Shown here piece by piece: positions 1,150-35,130 of a stretch of DNA of 40,927 bases. How positions within the stretch are numbered: position 1 is the stretch's first letter; every line of letters starts with the position of its first letter. The position numbers and the translations under genes were made by a program. Source of the DNA: a virus (taxonomy: Duplodnaviria > Heunggongvirae > Uroviricota > Caudoviricetes); IMG/VR virus record IMGVR_UViG_2541047877_000008; one strand, given 5' to 3'. The notes below the pieces were generated by a model that did not search any database, was not told the origin of the DNA, and saw nothing but the letters and a program-made list of their open reading frames with translations.

Positions 1150-1862
1150 GCCTATAAGGCTCTCTTACCAGCCGCGCCCTAACAGGCGCACACGATCTGA
1201 CATTTGCATCCAACTTCGTTACTTACGGCCCGTAAACGGGCTGCCCGGATAGGGAATCGATAACTGCTCTCCCATTTTATCCTCTTCAAGCTGGTGCTTT
1301 ATGTAATCCTGTATCTTCGCCGTGTTCTTACCCACTGTATCGACGTAGTACCCTCTGCACCAGAACTCCCTGTTCCTGTATTTGAATTTCAAATCACCAA
1401 ACTGCTCGTAAAGCATCAGACTGCTTTTCCCTTTCAGATATCCCATAAACCCGGATACGCTCATTTTAGGCGGGATCTCCACAAGCATATGGATATGATC
1501 TGCACAGCATTCAGCTTCCAGAATCCGTACGCTTTTCCACTCACACAGCTTTCTCAAAATACTGCCTATTGCTCTACGCTTCTCTCTGTAGAACACCTGT
1601 CTTCGGTATTTTGGCGCAAAAACTATGTGATATTTACAGTTCCATCGGGTGTGCGCTAAGCTCTTTTCGTTCCCCATTGGGACCCCCTTTTGATTTCTTG
1701 TTTGACACTTGCAGTTGCCAGACCGCAAGGTGTTTTAACAAATCAAAAGGGGTTTTAATAACTGGCTCAAAGCTGAAAGCTTTCCGGAACCCCCAGCCTA
1801 GCTGGGGGTTTTCTGTGCACAAAAAACCCTCTGTAGTAACAGAGGGTTTTGTTCATTCATAG
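1150..1862 (-). mobile_element. IS200-like insertion sequence (IS200/IS605 family); boundaries approximate
   Basis: Contains the Y1 transposase gene 1219-1677 and, upstream of it, two perfect stem-loops (1790-1808 CCCCAGC-CTA-GCTGGGG; 1823-1850 AAAACCCTCTGT-AGTA-ACAGAGGGTTTT) typical of the structured IS200 left end; expected size about 0.7 kb. Ends not determined precisely. Confidence 0.55.
1219..1677 (-). CDS. tnpA: IS200/IS605-family transposase TnpA (HUH Y1 transposase)
   Basis: Track ORF 1219-1728; start moved to internal ATG at 1675-1677 (MGNEKSLAHTRWNCKYHIVFAPKYRRQ..., 152 aa) with strong SD AAGGGGG upstream; sequence pattern HxH...Y characteristic of IS200 TnpA. Confidence 0.85.
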   Translation of the reverse strand: MGNEKSLAHTRWNCKYHIVFAPKYRRQVFYREKRRAIGSILRKLCEWKSVRILEAECCADHIHMLVEIPPKMSVSGFMGYLKGKSSLMLYEQFGDLKFKYRNREFWCRGYYVDTVGKNTAKIQDYIKHQLEEDKMGEQLSIPYPGSPFTGRK

Positions 1863-3108: not shown

Positions 3109-3406
3109 GTTTAGACCTCGATACTTTGAAAATTTGAACGACGTTACCGCGCGTTTTAATAACCGCAGCTAGCATGACAGCGTTGATAATGACCTCAGAT
3201 AAATCCACAGCCATTGGCGTACGTAACCAGATTGCATAGGCGACACGAACAGGAATACTGGCCGCAGCAACAATCAGGAAATAAGCAAGCCATCCTCCCC
3301 ACCTTCGGTGTTGAGAGCCGTTACGCCGGAATGTGACAACGCGAATTGCTATGCCAGTGCAAATAACTGCATTGGTGATAAGCAAAAAAAACTCATGCGT
3401 TACCAT
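3098..3406 (-). CDS. Holin-like small membrane protein
   Basis: ORF track 102 aa with 2-3 predicted TM segments, immediately upstream of endolysin and overlapping it. Confidence 0.5.
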
Positions 3407-3806
3407 CGTCTTTTCTCCCCGGAATTAACTCGCGTGGATTATCGGAACGGTGATAGAGCCATATACCAATACGCACAGCGACAATTGCTGACACGAATGC
3501 GCCTGCAGAGAAAACAATCCCTTTTTCAAAAGAGTCCTGCGTGATGGTAGGGATCAGGCTGGCTATGCCGATAAGAATTGATGCTGCTGGTTTGTAAAAG
3601 AGAAGGCCGCAAAGAAAGCTGAGCATCGACAGGAGCACCCGGCGACGGATGGGGTACTCTACTGCAGAGGTAACAAAAATTACCGCTCCAGCCAAAGCAC
3701 CCAAAGCAACCTCAGGAGGAACTCCTGCTATCACCGCCGCCAGAGAACTCATGCTAAGCCACTGATTTAAAGTTTCACTGGTTAGTTGAGCTGACATGTT
3801 TTCCAC
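3393..3806 (-). CDS. Holin/antiholin-like membrane protein
   Basis: ORF track 137 aa with multiple hydrophobic segments; first gene of the lysis cassette; overlaps next gene by 14 nt. Confidence 0.5.
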   Translation of the reverse strand: MENMSAQLTSETLNQWLSMSSLAAVIAGVPPEVALGALAGAVIFVTSAVEYPIRRRVLLSMLSFLCGLLFYKPAASILIGIASLIPTITQDSFEKGIVFSAGAFVSAIVAVRIGIWLYHRSDNPRELIPGRKDDGNA

Positions 3807-6602: not shown

Positions 6603-6677
6603 TCGCAAAACGTGCTGGATAGCAAACAAATTATTTGCTACTGTATAAATATACAGTTATTGCATGGAGAAGATAAG

Positions 6678-6935
6678 ATGCAGCAGTATCACTATCCACT
6701 GGAAGACGGATTTACCGAAAGGATTCACACGCCGGGAGGCGTCAGGTCACTGGTGGAGGGATCGCATTTGATGAAATTACTCCGGGATCTCGATAAGGAT
6801 GGATTTAATGTCGATGGCCCACTTGCCGAACTGACTGCACTGATTAACTACGTCACCAGCTCACAGATGTCTATGCGGGATCTGCAAACACATCTCGACT
6901 ATTGTGCCGAACAATTACGAAAACAAACCAGATAA
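6678..6935 (+). CDS. Small protein paralogous to the C-terminal domain of the antirepressor
   Basis: Within track ORF 6612-6935; ATG at 6678 preceded by GGAGAAG; C-terminal about 55 aa align with the C-terminus of the 7249-7935 product (LMxLL..L..DG..V.G..AELT....Y.......RD.QTH..Y). Confidence 0.5.
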   Translation: MQQYHYPLEDGFTERIHTPGGVRSLVEGSHLMKLLRDLDKDGFNVDGPLAELTALINYVTSSQMSMRDLQTHLDYCAEQLRKQTR

Positions 6936-6938
6936 GGT

Positions 6939-6982
6939 TTGCAATTGCCAAGTGGAGTGCTTATATTTACCTTTGCGGTAAA
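6939..6982 (+). promoter_or_regulatory. Sigma70-like promoter (TTGCAA-17-TATATT) overlapped by operator-like palindrome TTTACC-TTTGC-GGTAAA
   Basis: -35 TTGCAA 6939-6944, 17-bp spacer, -10 TATATT 6962-6967; palindrome 6966-6982 overlaps the -10 element and predicted start site. Confidence 0.5.
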
Positions 6983-7016
6983 TTTACATCGCACTCCTCT
7001 TGTGCCATAGTAATCG

Positions 7017-7038
7017 GGCACTGGCAAAATCCAGTGCC
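7017..7038 (+). other. Stable stem-loop in the ant leader (8-bp stem GGCACTGG / CCAGTGCC, loop CAAAAT)
   Basis: Perfect inverted repeat read from sequence. Confidence 0.5.
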
Positions 7039-7075
7039 GGGATTGGCGTCCCGAGTTACTACAGAGGCACATATG

Positions 7076-7095
7076 CCGCATAAGCGGTTTTTTTT
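7076..7095 (+). terminator. Rho-independent terminator / attenuator upstream of the antirepressor gene
   Basis: CCGC-ATAA-GCGG hairpin followed by eight T (7088-7095), about 100 nt downstream of the 6939 promoter and 150 nt upstream of the ant start. Confidence 0.6.
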
Positions 7096-7248
7096 ATGTG
7101 TAAAGCGCACCTATTCTATGGTGGGCTGTGTGGGGGCACCGAAAGGTGCGCCGGGTCCTTTGTAGCCGGTTACGCCAACCCTGCACAGTTCACCACCAAC
7201 CGATTGGCGTCGGTAGTGGTGATTAACCTAACTACAAAGGTGATCACT

Positions 7249-7935
7249 ATGACTGCTAACGTAACCCCATCTGTTTTTCATTTTGAATCAGAAGCAACCA
7301 TTCGAGCCATTGTTATTGATGGAAATCCTTGGTTTGTTGCCAAAGACGTTATTAAAGCTCTTCAACTGACAAACCCCACTATGTCAATAAAATCTCTTGA
7401 TGATGATGAAAGGGCTAAATTTAACTTAGGCCGTCAAGGCGAAACCAATATTATCAACGAGTCAGGCCTCTACACACTGATCCTCCGCTGCCGCGATGCA
7501 GTAACACCAGGCACTATCCCCTACCGCTTTCGCAAATGGGTTACAGGTGAGGTACTTCCTCAGATCCGCCGCACCGGAAGTTACATTAAAAACTCGCTCC
7601 CGCAAGAAGAACGCATAAAGATGGTTGCCGACCAGGTAGCCAACGCCACGGCGTCAGCAGTGATGCAGGCAATGAAGATAGAGAACAAAACCTACAGCGC
7701 CCCACTGAAGCCCGGCTACCGCAGCCTGATTCACTCGCCGTCTGGTGTTCTCGGCCTGACGGAGAACTCACTGCTGATGAATCTGCTGAACCAGTTACAG
7801 GAAGACGGGCACGACGTATCGGGCGCGGCGGCGGAGCTGACCACCATGTTCTGCTACATCGTCGGTGTGAGTAAATGCCTGCGTGATATCCAGACCCACG
7901 CGGAATACATCAACGACAAAGCAGGGTTCTTCTGA
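7249..7935 (+). CDS. Antirepressor-like protein with N-terminal Bro-N domain
   Basis: Track ORF 7096-7935; ATG at 7249 with SD AAGGTGA; N-terminal IRAIVIDGNPWFVAKDVIKAL matches the Bro-N fold common to phage antirepressors; located between ejection genes and tailspike like P22 immI. Confidence 0.7.
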   Translation: MTANVTPSVFHFESEATIRAIVIDGNPWFVAKDVIKALQLTNPTMSIKSLDDDERAKFNLGRQGETNIINESGLYTLILRCRDAVTPGTIPYRFRKWVTGEVLPQIRRTGSYIKNSLPQEERIKMVADQVANATASAVMQAMKIENKTYSAPLKPGYRSLIHSPSGVLGLTENSLLMNLLNQLQEDGHDVSGAAAELTTMFCYIVGVSKCLRDIQTHAEYINDKAGFF

Positions 7936-7977: not shown

Positions 7978-8021
7978 TTGCAGACTGGGGGTGAATAGCG
8001 TACTATTACCTTAAAGGTAAA
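7978..8021 (+). promoter_or_regulatory. Promoter (TTGCAG-17-TACTAT) overlapped by operator-like palindrome ATTACC-TTAAA-GGTAAA
   Basis: -35 7978-7983, -10 8001-8006, palindrome 8005-8021; about 25 bp upstream of the strong RBS GAGGAGGAG of the 8047 gene. Confidence 0.5.
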
Positions 8022-8046
8022 CCATGTGTTTACATGAGGAGGAGAT

Positions 8047-8256
8047 ATGGGATTTTGGTTCGCTCGTACAAAAACGAGGGATAATGCACCCAGCCCTCAG
8101 GCAAAAAATGCAGAAGTTCCGGCGTCAGCGCAGGTTAACAAGCGTGGTGGTGTGTATATCTCATCACAGCAAATTTCTGAGCTTCCTGAGGTTAAGGAGA
8201 TGCGTCGTCTCGCTGCTGCAATCGTTAAACAGGATCTTGCCACTGTAAGGAAATAG
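8047..8256 (+). CDS. Small hypothetical protein, first gene of the accessory cassette
   Basis: ORF track 69 aa; strong SD GAGGAGGAG 8036-8044; stop overlaps the GTG start of the next gene (TAGTG). Confidence 0.5.
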   Translation: MGFWFARTKTRDNAPSPQAKNAEVPASAQVNKRGGVYISSQQISELPEVKEMRRLAAAIVKQDLATVRK

Positions 8257-9119
8257 TGTTGTTAGCTCTTCTAATTATCCCCATTCTGGTTAGTGGTTAT
8301 ATTATGATAACCGCTAACCAGTATCATTATTTCCGTTTATACCGACATGAAGGCCAGCTTCTTTATATGAAAGTTGCTGCATTAGGTACATATTGCCTTG
8401 TTGCTTCGGTAATAATTGCCGCATTTATAAAATATAAATATCCTGATTTTCACCTAGTTCACGATATGGTGGAAACTTTTAATGTAACGTCAAAACCAGA
8501 AACAGATAGAATTTACATGTGGCTACTTCTTCTGTCAGTCACATCAATTTGCTTCTCTTTGTGTTATGTATCTTTTGTTTGGCTAAAAGATCTTCTTTTA
8601 GGTTGTTTTTATAAACGTGATATTTATGACAAAATATCAGAGGCAATGAAAGCTAGGGTATTGCGAAAAACGTACTCCCAGGGTTCTTTAGATTTGCTAT
8701 TGCTTGATGCAATCGAATCAGATCCTAAGAAACCAATGTTAATTACTTTATCATCAAATAAAGTATACGTTGGAATAATAAATGGTTCTGGTGAGCCAAC
8801 GGAAAATCAAGGGCCACACCAACACATATCTTTTGTTCCTTTAATGTCAGGGTACAGAAACAAAGAAAATTTATCTGTTACATTTACAAACGCTTACCCA
8901 GGTGAAATCCAAATTAAGCGCAGTGCTGCGATAAAAGGGATAAGCAAAAAGAAAGTTCAAGGTCTAGAAATTATGGTATCTATAGACGAAATAAGTCATA
9001 TATCATGGTTTGACTTTGAAGTATATAAGGCAACAAATAACAAAGTAGAAACAAAGGGTCATGTTGTTAATGTGACCAAAAATGGTCGCAACATATACTA
9101 CAGAAGTGGCAGAAAATAA
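8256..9119 (+). CDS. Membrane protein (about 3 N-terminal TM helices plus about 175-aa soluble domain), AT-rich cargo gene; candidate superinfection-exclusion/defence component
   Basis: ORF track 287 aa, GTG start coupled to upstream stop; hydrophobic segments in first about 110 aa; DNA strongly AT-rich relative to neighbours; no motif recognised. Confidence 0.5.
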   Translation: MLLALLIIPILVSGYIMITANQYHYFRLYRHEGQLLYMKVAALGTYCLVASVIIAAFIKYKYPDFHLVHDMVETFNVTSKPETDRIYMWLLLLSVTSICFSLCYVSFVWLKDLLLGCFYKRDIYDKISEAMKARVLRKTYSQGSLDLLLLDAIESDPKKPMLITLSSNKVYVGIINGSGEPTENQGPHQHISFVPLMSGYRNKENLSVTFTNAYPGEIQIKRSAAIKGISKKKVQGLEIMVSIDEISHISWFDFEVYKATNNKVETKGHVVNVTKNGRNIYYRSGRK

Positions 9120-9135
9120 ATTTTACGCAGTTTAG

Positions 9136-9648
9136 GTGGCTTATATGGATAATACTATCTTAGGCGCATTGATAGGTGCAGTTATTGCTATAGTTTCCAC
9201 TTATATAAATGCAGGACAAGGATACAAAAACAGCATAAGATTAGAGCGACAAAAAATATTAAGGGATAAACGCGAGCAATTATTTATAAATTGTATACTT
9301 ACTAAAAAAGTCATAGATTCAAGCACAATTACCATTCTCAATTTCGTAAAAAATGCCAGATACCACTCTGATAGTAAATTTGACGTATCAAGAGCGAATC
9401 CGTTGCAAACGATGGAAATGCTAATAAACATATACCTTCCTGAGTATAAAAAAGACTTACAAGAACTCAATAATGCGTATCAAGAATTTCACAAATACTA
9501 CTCTCAATATACATGTGCACATACCTTCAAAAATATGCCTGATAATGAGAAGTCGAGGTTTATTGAGGAGGCTGATTTTTATGCAAAAAAGATATATGGC
9601 AAACTTAATGATATTAAGGACAAGATATCATTAAACTCAATAGTATAA
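9136..9648 (+). CDS. Membrane-anchored protein (single N-terminal TM, K/E-rich soluble domain), AT-rich cargo gene
   Basis: ORF track 170 aa; N-terminal ILGALIGAVIAIVSTYI hydrophobic helix; AT-rich; 16 nt downstream of previous gene. Confidence 0.5.
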   Translation: MAYMDNTILGALIGAVIAIVSTYINAGQGYKNSIRLERQKILRDKREQLFINCILTKKVIDSSTITILNFVKNARYHSDSKFDVSRANPLQTMEMLINIYLPEYKKDLQELNNAYQEFHKYYSQYTCAHTFKNMPDNEKSRFIEEADFYAKKIYGKLNDIKDKISLNSIV

Positions 9649-26235: not shown

Positions 26236-26273
26236 TTGACATTTAACGCACAAATTATTACCTTTCAGGTAAC
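26236..26273 (+). promoter_or_regulatory. Promoter-like TTGACA box with operator-like palindrome ATTACC-TTTCA-GGTAAC, upstream of the tRNA unit
   Basis: TTGACA 26236-26241; palindrome 26257-26273 17 bp downstream (putative -10 TACCTT inside the half-site). Confidence 0.45.
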
Positions 26274-26594: not shown

Positions 26595-26671
26595 GTGGCA
26601 TTAGCTCAGTTGGACAGAGCAACCGCCTTCTAAGCGGTTGGTCGCAGGTTCGAATCCTGCATGCCGCGCCA
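26595..26671 (+). tRNA. tRNA-Arg (anticodon TCT, reads AGA)
   Basis: Manually folded cloverleaf: acceptor GTGGCAT/ATGCCGC, D-stem GCTC/GAGC, anticodon stem ACCGC/GCGGT with loop CTTCTAA, T-arm GCAGG-TTCGAAT-CCTGC, discriminator G, encoded CCA; 77 nt. Confidence 0.85.
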
Positions 26672-34799: not shown

Positions 34800-35030
34800 T
34801 CATGAGTAGAAGAAGTATGCCAGTTCTGCTTTTGAGCGCAGCCATTGTCTTGATTTACAGGCTTTAAAAAGCCCATCCATCAATACCTTACCTGGCATTT
34901 TGCGCTTACCTGTTAAGTGAGTCTGGATATAGTGACTCGTCGTTCCGGCTTCCTGTGCGAAGGCTTCACGCTCATCCGGAGTAAGTGCAAGCCAGTGCTT
35001 TTTGAAATCGAAATGTCCGTTATCGCTCAT
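34800..35030 (-). CDS. Cro-like small HTH regulator
   Basis: ORF track 76 aa; divergent from the repressor gene across the operator cluster. Confidence 0.5.
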   Translation of the reverse strand: MSDNGHFDFKKHWLALTPDEREAFAQEAGTTSHYIQTHLTGKRKMPGKVLMDGLFKACKSRQWLRSKAELAYFFYS

Positions 35031-35065: not shown

Positions 35066-35130
35066 TTCACCTATAAGGTAACAAAAATCAAGGATAGTTA
35101 CCCATGAGGTGCATTTACCTGTTGGGTAAT
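35066..35130. promoter_or_regulatory. OR-like operator cluster (three 17-bp sites: 35066-35082, 35097-35113, 35114-35130)
   Basis: TTCACC-TATAA-GGTAAC, GTTACC-CATGA-GGTGCA, TTTACC-TGTTG-GGTAAT; centre spacings 31 and 17 bp; between the cro-like start (35030) and the repressor start (35185). Confidence 0.6.

Follow-up and report, generated by a model that had tools for sequence, protein, structure and literature searches.

In the immI region of phages P1 and P7, the elements Op51, P51a, P51b, a1, b1, c4, a2 and b2 lead into icd and the antirepressor genes ant1/2, and in P1 the elements from Op51 to b2 are annotated from experiments (GenBank record). The C4 RNA of P1 pairs with a2 and b2 and blocks icd/ant expression (GenBank annotation; Weinberg 2010), and competition of a1 and b1 for C4 was proposed by Citron and Schuster 1990, according to Weinberg 2010. 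In the Salmonella prophage Gifsy-1, a fraction of isrK transcripts passes the terminator and continues into the antirepressor gene, anrP, so that IsrK has a short and a long isoform (Hershko-Shalev et al. 2016, PMC4825925). The long isoform is translationally silent, translation of anrP rises more than 100-fold when the short one is provided in trans, and the isrK promoter is required for prophage induction (PMC4825925). Downstream of IsrK lies STnc1160, a stable RNA that arises by processing and has complementarity to IsrK (PMC4825925), and co-occurrence of isrK and C4 was noted earlier in APSE phages (PMC7313666). Here we show that the gap at positions 6936-7248 of IMG/VR virus record IMGVR_UViG_2541047877_000008, a stretch of 40,927 nucleotides (nt) called the window below, belongs, judged by its sequence, to the c4-ant modules of the P1/P7 immI type and has the form known from the Gifsy-1 isrK locus. 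The gap is the exact interval between the stop codon of an 85-amino acid (aa) open reading frame (ORF; TAA 6933-6935) and the ATG (7249) of the antirepressor gene ant, and for it we establish family membership, the RNA structures, their complementarities and covariation, and the position of a conserved promoter.

The window phage is an epsilon15/phiV10-like (Uetakevirus) prophage whose top DNA matches are phiV10, vB_EcoP_ZX5 (ZX5), Tyrion and similar phages. Element names follow P1, details of which were taken from its GenBank annotation and Weinberg 2010. An Rfam scan returned three covariance models on the plus strand, in the order c4-a1b1, isrK and C4, all full-length and with E-values of 1e-9 to 1e-15, an ensemble far above chance. 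The isrK model (RF01394) matched 7018-7094 with 74.2 bits (cut-off 50; E 2e-15; model positions 1-77 of 77, terminator hairpin included), the C4 model (RF01695) matched 7114-7200 (+) with 79.5 bits (cut-off 45; E 2.4e-15; model positions 1-87 of 87), and c4-a1b1 (RF03163) matched 7005-7057 with 44.3 bits, slightly below its cut-off of 46.7 (E 2.4e-09). The order of elements in the window is isrK, terminator, C4 and ant. Every sequence feature by which a C4 RNA is recognised is present, as are those of isrK loci with the exception of orf45, and we consider control of ant by an immI-type RNA of the P1/P7 c4 kind to be highly probable. The locus is an unannotated further example of a known RNA switch; the inspected records of related phages carry no RNA annotation in the gap, nor does RefSeq list one for an E. 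coli prophage identical to that of the window.

A previous sequence-only reading of the gap had described a promoter, an operator-like palindrome, hairpins and a terminator, all of which are present to within 1-2 nt of where it placed them. Its view of the whole gap as a control region dedicated to ant holds, and fits the short and long IsrK isoforms shown in Gifsy-1 (PMC4825925). It had also suggested an Rfam scan and RNA folding, and both were informative: isrK and C4 score above their cut-offs, and the minimum free energy fold of C4 (-45.2 kcal/mol) is the Rfam consensus structure, a fold kept in 19 homologues with compensatory changes. The element it missed is the central one, the C4 antisense RNA, which it had recorded as "more hairpins", with GCACC-GAAA-GGTGC as an example. 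Coordinates of all features are collected in Table 1, in which the mature ends of C4 were derived from the annotated 77-nt C4 of P1.

Table 1. Features of the gap and its surroundings, by position in the window.
Feature	Coordinates	Strand	Description
LexA-box-like palindrome TACTGTATAAATATACAGTT	6639-6658	+	2 mismatches to consensus; 0 hits expected by chance
85-aa ORF	6678-6935	+	paralogue of Ant C-terminal domain; phrog_450, function unknown
Upstream promoter-like site TTGCAA-17-TATATT	6939-6967	+	9/12 consensus positions; 44 bp upstream of conserved promoter
Operator-like dyad TTTACC-TTTGC-GGTAAA	6966-6982		between the upstream -10 and the -35 of the conserved promoter
Conserved promoter of IsrK-like/C4/ant transcript	6983-7011	+	-35 TTTACA 6983-6988, 17-nt spacer, -10 CATAGT 7006-7011
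IsrK-like small RNA / a1b1 leader of C4 operon	7018-7095	+	two hairpins, single-stranded stretch, terminator hairpin and U8
a1 UUGGCGU	7043-7049	+	loop of IsrK hairpin 2; 7 perfect pairs with a'
b1 CUACAGAGG	7059-7067	+	single-stranded stretch before terminator; 9 pairs with b', one G-U
Intrinsic terminator GCCGC-AUAA-GCGGU and U8	7075-7095	+	stem 7075-7088, eight T 7088-7095
C4 antisense RNA	7120-7197 (Rfam match 7114-7200)	+	17-bp outer stem enclosing two hairpins
C4 GAAA hairpin GCACC-GAAA-GGTGC	7136-7149	+	tetraloop GAAA
C4 hairpin 2	7150-7170	+	11-nt loop carries b'
b' CCUUUGUAG	7157-7165	+	loop of C4 hairpin 2; partners b1, b2
a' ACGCCAA	7172-7178	+	8-nt single-stranded joint 3' of hairpin 2; partners a1, a2
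Alternative hairpin	7190-7222	+	UCACCAC (7190-7196, 3' strand of C4 outer stem) pairs with GUGGUGA (7216-7222); a2 in loop
a2 UUGGCGU	7204-7210	+	starts 4 nt past Rfam C4 match; 7 pairs with a'
b2 CUACAAAGG	7232-7240	+	9 perfect pairs with b'; overlaps ant Shine-Dalgarno sequence AAGGUGA (7237-7243)
ant	7249-7935	+	228-aa predicted antirepressor; N-terminal Bro-N; C-terminal domain common with 85-aa upstream ORF

The position of a2 agrees with that annotated in P1, and the position of a1 and the anatomy of the a and b sites agree with Weinberg 2010. A search of the plus strand of the 41-kb window for bipartite sites with a followed by b returned those at 7043 and 7204 and no others. Folding of the whole C4 against the whole flanks with RNAduplexfold, which ignores intramolecular structure, yielded long duplexes without meaning and served solely to locate the core complementarities.

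The comparison covered the window and 18 further loci from phages of Escherichia, Salmonella, Klebsiella, Enterobacter, Yersinia, Hamiltonella and Actinobacillus, among them P1, Gifsy-1, phiV10, ZX5, Tyrion, a Klebsiella phage, APSE-2, a Yersinia phage, an Actinobacillus phage, Salmonella phage 118970_sal3, and several Stx and other E. coli phages. Common to all 19 is the order of an isrK-like element, C4 20-25 nt further on (approximately 30 in P1), and an Ant/Rha/Bro-N gene; the pair of isrK and c4-a1b1 matches was found in all relatives tested, and P1 matches c4-a1b1, not isrK. Across these loci a' occurs in six variants and the b' loop in 15, each matched by its own a1 and a2 or its own b1 and b2, and phiV10 and ZX5, in which b' has lost 1 nt, show the matching loss in b1 and in b2. 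Positions are equally regular: a1 is at +26, counted from the 5' end of the RNA, in 18 loci and at +24 in PhiR26_1, b1 at +39 to +43 in all, a2 at +1 to +6 past C4, and b2 over the Shine-Dalgarno (SD) sequence of the next gene in 17, the remaining two (PhiR26_1 and vB_YpM_41) having it over the start codon. In a cross-locus control, own-locus pairing scores averaged 17.6-20.8 as against 11.6-12.5 with a probe from another locus; for b' the own-locus averages were 19.6 (b1) and 20.8 (b2) as against 11.6 and 12.5, and for a' the own-locus score was reached by at most 1% of cross-locus pairs. This three-way covariation at fixed positions, locus-specific in the control, is strong evidence from sequence comparison that the a'/a1/a2 and b'/b1/b2 pairings are functional.

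Beyond these pairings, the 3' strand of the C4 outer stem can form an alternative hairpin with a downstream segment (Table 1). The downstream partner is GGTGGTGA, or GGTGGCGA if C4 ends UCGCCACC, in all loci but P1, where a different complementary pair, CCUGC/GCAGG, takes its place. A conserved GGUGGUGA stands approximately 20 nt downstream of the 3' strand of the C4 stem and covaries with C4 (GGUGGCGA with UCGCCACC). Weinberg 2010 remarks on a hairpin that overlaps the C4 stem in its 3' half, and the alternative hairpin may be relevant to the unprocessed precursor, to processing or to presentation of a2.

A promoter scan found the conserved promoter, with an extended -10 (TGc 7003-7005; TG 7003-7004) and a predicted start at G7018. 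Its -35/-10 pair ends 6 nt before isrK model position 1 in 19 of 19 loci, Gifsy-1 included, and the pair at this position in P1 is the annotated promoter P51b (P1c4); CTTGTGCCATAGT in the promoter region is invariant in the five closest loci. The sequence-only reading had instead started the transcript from the TTGCAA-17-TATATT pair upstream. This site is present, but by itself it does not rise above chance (a scan of 3.5 kb gave 10 promoter-like sites as against 7.5 +/- 2.4 in shuffles), and the conserved promoter is the downstream one. In relatives the -10 of the upstream site stays -10-like (TATTAT in Tyrion, AATTAT in the Klebsiella phage) and its -35 drifts; positionally like P51a of P1, it may be a second promoter.

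From G7018 to the terminator, the predicted IsrK-like RNA is 77-78 nt long. The hairpin of eight perfect base pairs (GGCACTGG/CCAGTGCC, 7017-7024/7031-7038) is as the sequence-only reading had described it. A short plus-strand RNA ending at this terminator, which that reading had predicted, fits the IsrK isoforms of Gifsy-1 (PMC4825925), but its length would not be the roughly 120 nt then supposed. The terminator, hairpin and eight T alike, is also present, but to call it strong was an overstatement: with a stem of five pairs and -7.5 kcal/mol it is modest, which makes leaky termination plausible, and it is probably leaky, as in Gifsy-1. Of the other possibility raised, an attenuated leader needing antitermination to express ant, read-through that feeds ant is retained, and by homology an antitermination factor should be unnecessary, the terminator being weak and, in Gifsy-1, leaky.

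We propose that transcription would start near 7018 from the conserved promoter and that most transcripts would end at the weak terminator, yielding the IsrK-like RNA that bears a1 and b1. Read-through transcripts would carry C4 (approximately 7120-7197), excised from the precursor with its 5' end formed by RNase P as in P1, followed by the ant mRNA. The b' loop and single-stranded a' of C4 would pair with b2 and a2 in the ant leader; since b2 covers the SD, Ant would then stay untranslated, the main repressor would stay active, and lysogeny or immunity would be maintained. The IsrK-like RNA, or a longer transcript with a1 and b1, would act as a decoy competing for C4, and once in excess of C4 it would permit ant translation and turn the prophage toward lytic growth. 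The weak terminator would set the ratio of IsrK-like RNA to C4, and the main repressor or Cro, acting at the operator-like dyad, would set the transcription level of the module. We infer C4 processing, translational repression, decoy action and operator binding by analogy, on the basis of experiments with P1 and Gifsy-1.

Resemblance to P1 is extensive. The element order is the same and lies on one strand; C4 folds into an outer stem and two hairpins, the second loop bearing b' and the 3' joint a'; a1/b1 stand upstream and a2/b2 downstream, with b2 over a ribosome-binding site (RBS); the distance from promoter to a1 is equal; a terminator-like hairpin with a U-run separates b1 from c4; a repressor operator (putative in the window) lies just upstream; and the final product is an antirepressor. 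Unlike P1, the window lacks icd and has b2 over the ant SD itself, as in Gifsy-1, Stx phages and APSE, and its Ant is a 228-aa Bro-N protein where P1 has Ant1/Ant2. The a'/b' sequences also differ (ACGCCAA/CCUUUGUAG in the window, CUGUCAA/UCACUAAC in P1), as do the operator motif (TTTACC-N5-GGTAAA as against an asymmetric C1 site) and the host element (a 40-kb integrating podovirus of the Uetakevirus group as against a plasmid prophage).

Several points weigh against c4-type control of ant in this prophage: (i) phiV10 has a degraded -35 at the conserved promoter, (ii) the start, termination efficiency, C4 processing and repression in the window are all predictions, (iii) a repressor that bound at 6966-6982 and silenced the promoter in lysogens would leave these without C4 and alter the logic, (iv) the direct target in P1 is the icd RBS, with ant translationally coupled, and the window has no icd, (v) RNAcofold gave ddG (change in free energy) values of 0 and -0.5, hence no net gain, for C4 with the ant leader or the IsrK-like RNA, which says nothing either way because loop-loop contacts lie beyond what the program can model, and (vi) the authors of the Gifsy-1 study explain their data by an upstream ORF, orf45, and not by C4 (PMC4825925).

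The last of these points is an explanation in its own right, in which short IsrK would open an otherwise inactive read-through RNA so that orf45 is translated and ant with it by coupling, no antisense RNA being needed. The Gifsy-1 locus (isrK, orf45/STnc1160, anrP) has indeed much in common with the window: a full-length isrK with terminator, C4 approximately 20 nt on, an antirepressor gene with its SD overlapped by b2, and an identical a' (ACGCCAA), with a different b'. The isrK family match is strong and the Gifsy-1 genetics are detailed (PMC4825925), and the AUG used there, AUGGUGGG at the start of the C4 stem, exists in the window at 7118-7120. However, the homologous frame in the window closes after 15 codons at a UAG (7163-7165) within the b' loop; this stop lies 84 nt before the ant ATG, which makes coupling to ant implausible, and the window thus has no orf45. 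Relatives have indels that shift this frame, the stretch amounts to a complete C4 RNA whose stems covary, and the comparison in the Gifsy-1 paper found orf45 conserved as a nucleotide sequence but variable as an amino-acid sequence, according to a 2025 review. We regard control through orf45 as very improbable here.

In Gifsy-1 itself (our locus L010), the orf45/STnc1160 stretch at 34214-34131 (-) gives a full-length Rfam C4 match of 69 bits, with anrP following from 34076. The b' loop of this C4 is complementary to a site on the anrP SD, which b2 overlaps, and orf45, as published, starts from the AUG located at the C4 stem base. The behaviour found experimentally in Gifsy-1 (leaky terminator, trans-activation, processed RNA, induction) is what we would predict for the module in the window. 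The two loci differ in genomic place, between tailspike and virion genes of a podovirus in the window and downstream of a Q-like antiterminator of a lambdoid prophage in Gifsy-1, and the window has a LexA-box gene and a repeated operator-like dyad directly upstream, which distinguishes it from Gifsy-1.

The location of a1/b1 immediately upstream of a terminator in 19 of 19 loci, P1 included, is also what would be expected if C4 acted by transcriptional attenuation as in phage P4, binding a1/b1 of the nascent leader and enforcing termination at 7075-7095, with a2/b2 pairing leading to Rho-dependent polarity and the short RNA as a by-product. Work on P1 from the Schuster laboratory reportedly found that ant transcription is lost in a Rho-dependent manner when C4 acts. 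P4 immunity (CI RNA with seqA, seqB and seqC) and the module predicted for the window share a small RNA that is cut from the leader of its own target operon and is complementary to one site upstream and one downstream. The authors of the Gifsy-1 study call IsrK a structural homologue of P4 seqA and liken STnc1160 to the CI RNA, and their IsrK in trans raised a transcriptional fusion 8-fold (PMC4825925). The same experiments raised a translational fusion 139-fold, and co-expression of STnc1160 did not relieve IsrK toxicity, contrary to a termination-factor model (PMC4825925). The placement of b2 over the SD (17 of 19) or start codon (2 of 19) is likewise hard to explain without translational control. 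P4 prematurely terminates transcription of replication genes rather than occluding an antirepressor RBS. Attenuation of this type, which would be compatible with the control of ant proposed above, seems to us rather unlikely.

The sequence-only reading had likened the gap to the immI region of P22, in which Arc and Mnt repress Pant and the sar RNA, from the opposite strand, overlaps the ant RBS in cis. As in P22 (mnt-arc-ant, sar), ant stands beside the tailspike gene, there is a dedicated control region that includes a small RNA, and a palindrome overlies the upstream promoter site, all in favour of control by Mnt/Arc-like repressors and a sar-type RNA. No arc/mnt-type gene was found: the only neighbouring small ORF, that of 85 aa, is a paralogue of the Ant C-terminal domain, is not Arc/Mnt-like and has no significant Pfam match. 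The promoter scan found no minus-strand promoter-like site in 6936-7260, leaving no sar-like opposite-strand promoter. The structured elements are all plus-strand RNAs, co-oriented with ant, that match the C4 and isrK models and make short loop complementarities. A P22 immI-like control is effectively refuted, its probability being close to nil, and the comparison has to be transferred to P1/P7 immI (c4-icd-ant) as the closest system.

The operator-like palindrome of the sequence-only reading (TTTGCAATT/AATTGCCAA, 6938-6951) exists and is 89% complementary, but it is weakly conserved; the conserved, repeated element is the dyad at 6966-6982, whose arms are invariant in five related loci and whose 5-nt spacer and surroundings vary. 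With up to two mismatches the dyad has 12 matches in the window, as against 1.3 expected and a count reached in 0 of 100 shuffles, and these 17-bp copies start at 6966, 8005, 16727, 26257, 26874, 29825, 32721, 32783, 35066, 35114, 35826 and 35888. Most copies of the motif, (A/T)TTACC-N5-GGTAA(A/T), are intergenic, and pairs flank the cro/repressor region. The pair at 35066/35114 lies between divergent genes for a Cro-like protein (34800-35030, -; 76 aa) and a helix-turn-helix repressor (35185-35769, +), the candidate main repressor, with 194 aa, an HTH_3 domain and a PHROG transcriptional regulator match. Given the conserved arms, the 12-fold recurrence and the copies between the cro-like and repressor genes, the main repressor or Cro probably uses the dyad as an operator, which would make it the counterpart of Op51 in P1, and the copies together look like a dispersed set of main-repressor operators, recalling the way C1 operators are scattered in P1. 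A Pfam search of the candidate main repressor gave no match to a peptidase S24 domain (LexA-type self-cleavage), which suggests that induction relies on antirepressors and not on repressor self-cleavage, as in Gifsy phages. An outer inverted repeat (6949-6960/6991-7002) is absent in Tyrion and the Klebsiella phage and was given no role.

Upstream of the gap, the LexA-box-like palindrome is kept in phiV10, ZX5 and Tyrion. A second palindrome (TAGCAAACAA/TTATTTGCTA, 6620-6640) abuts it, identical in phiV10 and ZX5 and different in Tyrion. The 85-aa ORF that follows shares 41% identity with residues 147-224 of Ant (E 2e-16), and from its sequence its product may be a small antirepressor under SOS control. 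No plus-strand terminator was predicted between 6448 and 7075; with none between the 85-aa ORF and the IsrK-like region, SOS-induced transcripts could bring additional a1/b1 decoy, a link of the LexA-box gene to the RNA module that we infer. A wider view, which we offer tentatively and think more doubtful than not, is that the module is a three-input switch: (i) an SOS promoter with the LexA box could drive the stand-alone copy of the Ant C-terminal domain, a possible small antirepressor, (ii) LexA-box transcripts carrying a1/b1 would titrate C4 and unlock translation of full-length Ant, and (iii) the operator of the main repressor at 6966-6982 would gate a constitutive promoter. The same tentative view includes a re-reading of Gifsy-1, in which orf45 would be the C4 RNA (STnc1160) and IsrK a sponge for C4.

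Ant was assigned to its family by sequence (Pfam Bro-N, 5.2e-20; PHROG anti-repressor Ant, 8e-57), and its start codon at 7249 is identical in the RefSeq annotation. In ZX5, overexpression of ORF4, the protein in the ant slot, lowers lysogeny and promotes the lytic cycle (PMC9782041); its equivalence to the ant of the window is positional, and ORF4 is only 39% identical to phiV10 Ant (PMC9782041). The ZX5 study tested Ant and the repressor by overexpression and does not mention an RNA, a LexA site or an operator sequence (PMC9782041).

Alternative coding readings of the gap were rejected. An ant extended from the in-frame ATG at 7096 (279 aa) has no SD, departs from the RefSeq start and is broken by indels in close relatives. 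Plus-strand ORFs of 87 aa (6902-7165) and 32 aa (7128-7226) and minus-strand ORFs at 6899-7081 and 6967-7110 likewise have no SD, and their frames are disrupted by indels in close relatives. A search of the gap for transfer RNA (tRNA) or tmRNA genes gave none. Small coding sequences (CDSs) labelled hypothetical or ash family are annotated over C4 in several relatives: an "ash family protein" in ZX5 (our locus L018, 1697-1810), orf34 in VT2-Sakai (L007, 1563-1736), a minus-strand CDS in the Klebsiella phage (L003, 1645-1842) and a further one in L011 (1505-1597). These are probably annotation artefacts.

Elsewhere in the window, the tailspike-like gene lies further left of the gap on the minus strand. 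On the 3' side of ant, 8005-9648 holds plus-strand genes of 69, 287 and 170 aa behind the dyad copy at 8005-8021; Pfam and PADLOC searches of the genes at 8047-9648 gave no match, and their PHROG families are of unknown function. The same slot holds other genes in phiV10 and in an otherwise identical E. coli prophage (a DUF4760 gene), and it appears to be a variable cargo position. An IS200-like element at 1219-1810 (-), with a Y1 transposase (1219-1728) and an Rfam STnc490 RNA (1687-1810) at its 5' end, is inserted near lysis genes (holin-like 3393-3806; DUF2514 2000-2482). A tRNA-Arg gene (anticodon TCT; 26595-26671, +) lies within the prophage between the dyad copies at 26257 and 26874.

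The c4 mechanism is already textbook knowledge for P1, and the general significance of the finding is therefore modest. The RNA module explains the dubious small CDS annotations over the C4 stretch, and the 19-locus comparison ties the Salmonella IsrK to the classical c4 of P1, with b2 on the antirepressor SD noted for both. If true, the re-reading of Gifsy-1 would unify IsrK and c4, which are treated as separate in the literature searched. For epsilon15/phiV10-like (Uetakevirus) prophages, a concrete control circuit is proposed for the antirepressor, and at least 80% of the 325-bp region is carried by 450 of 5,426 complete E. coli genomes (approximately 8%).

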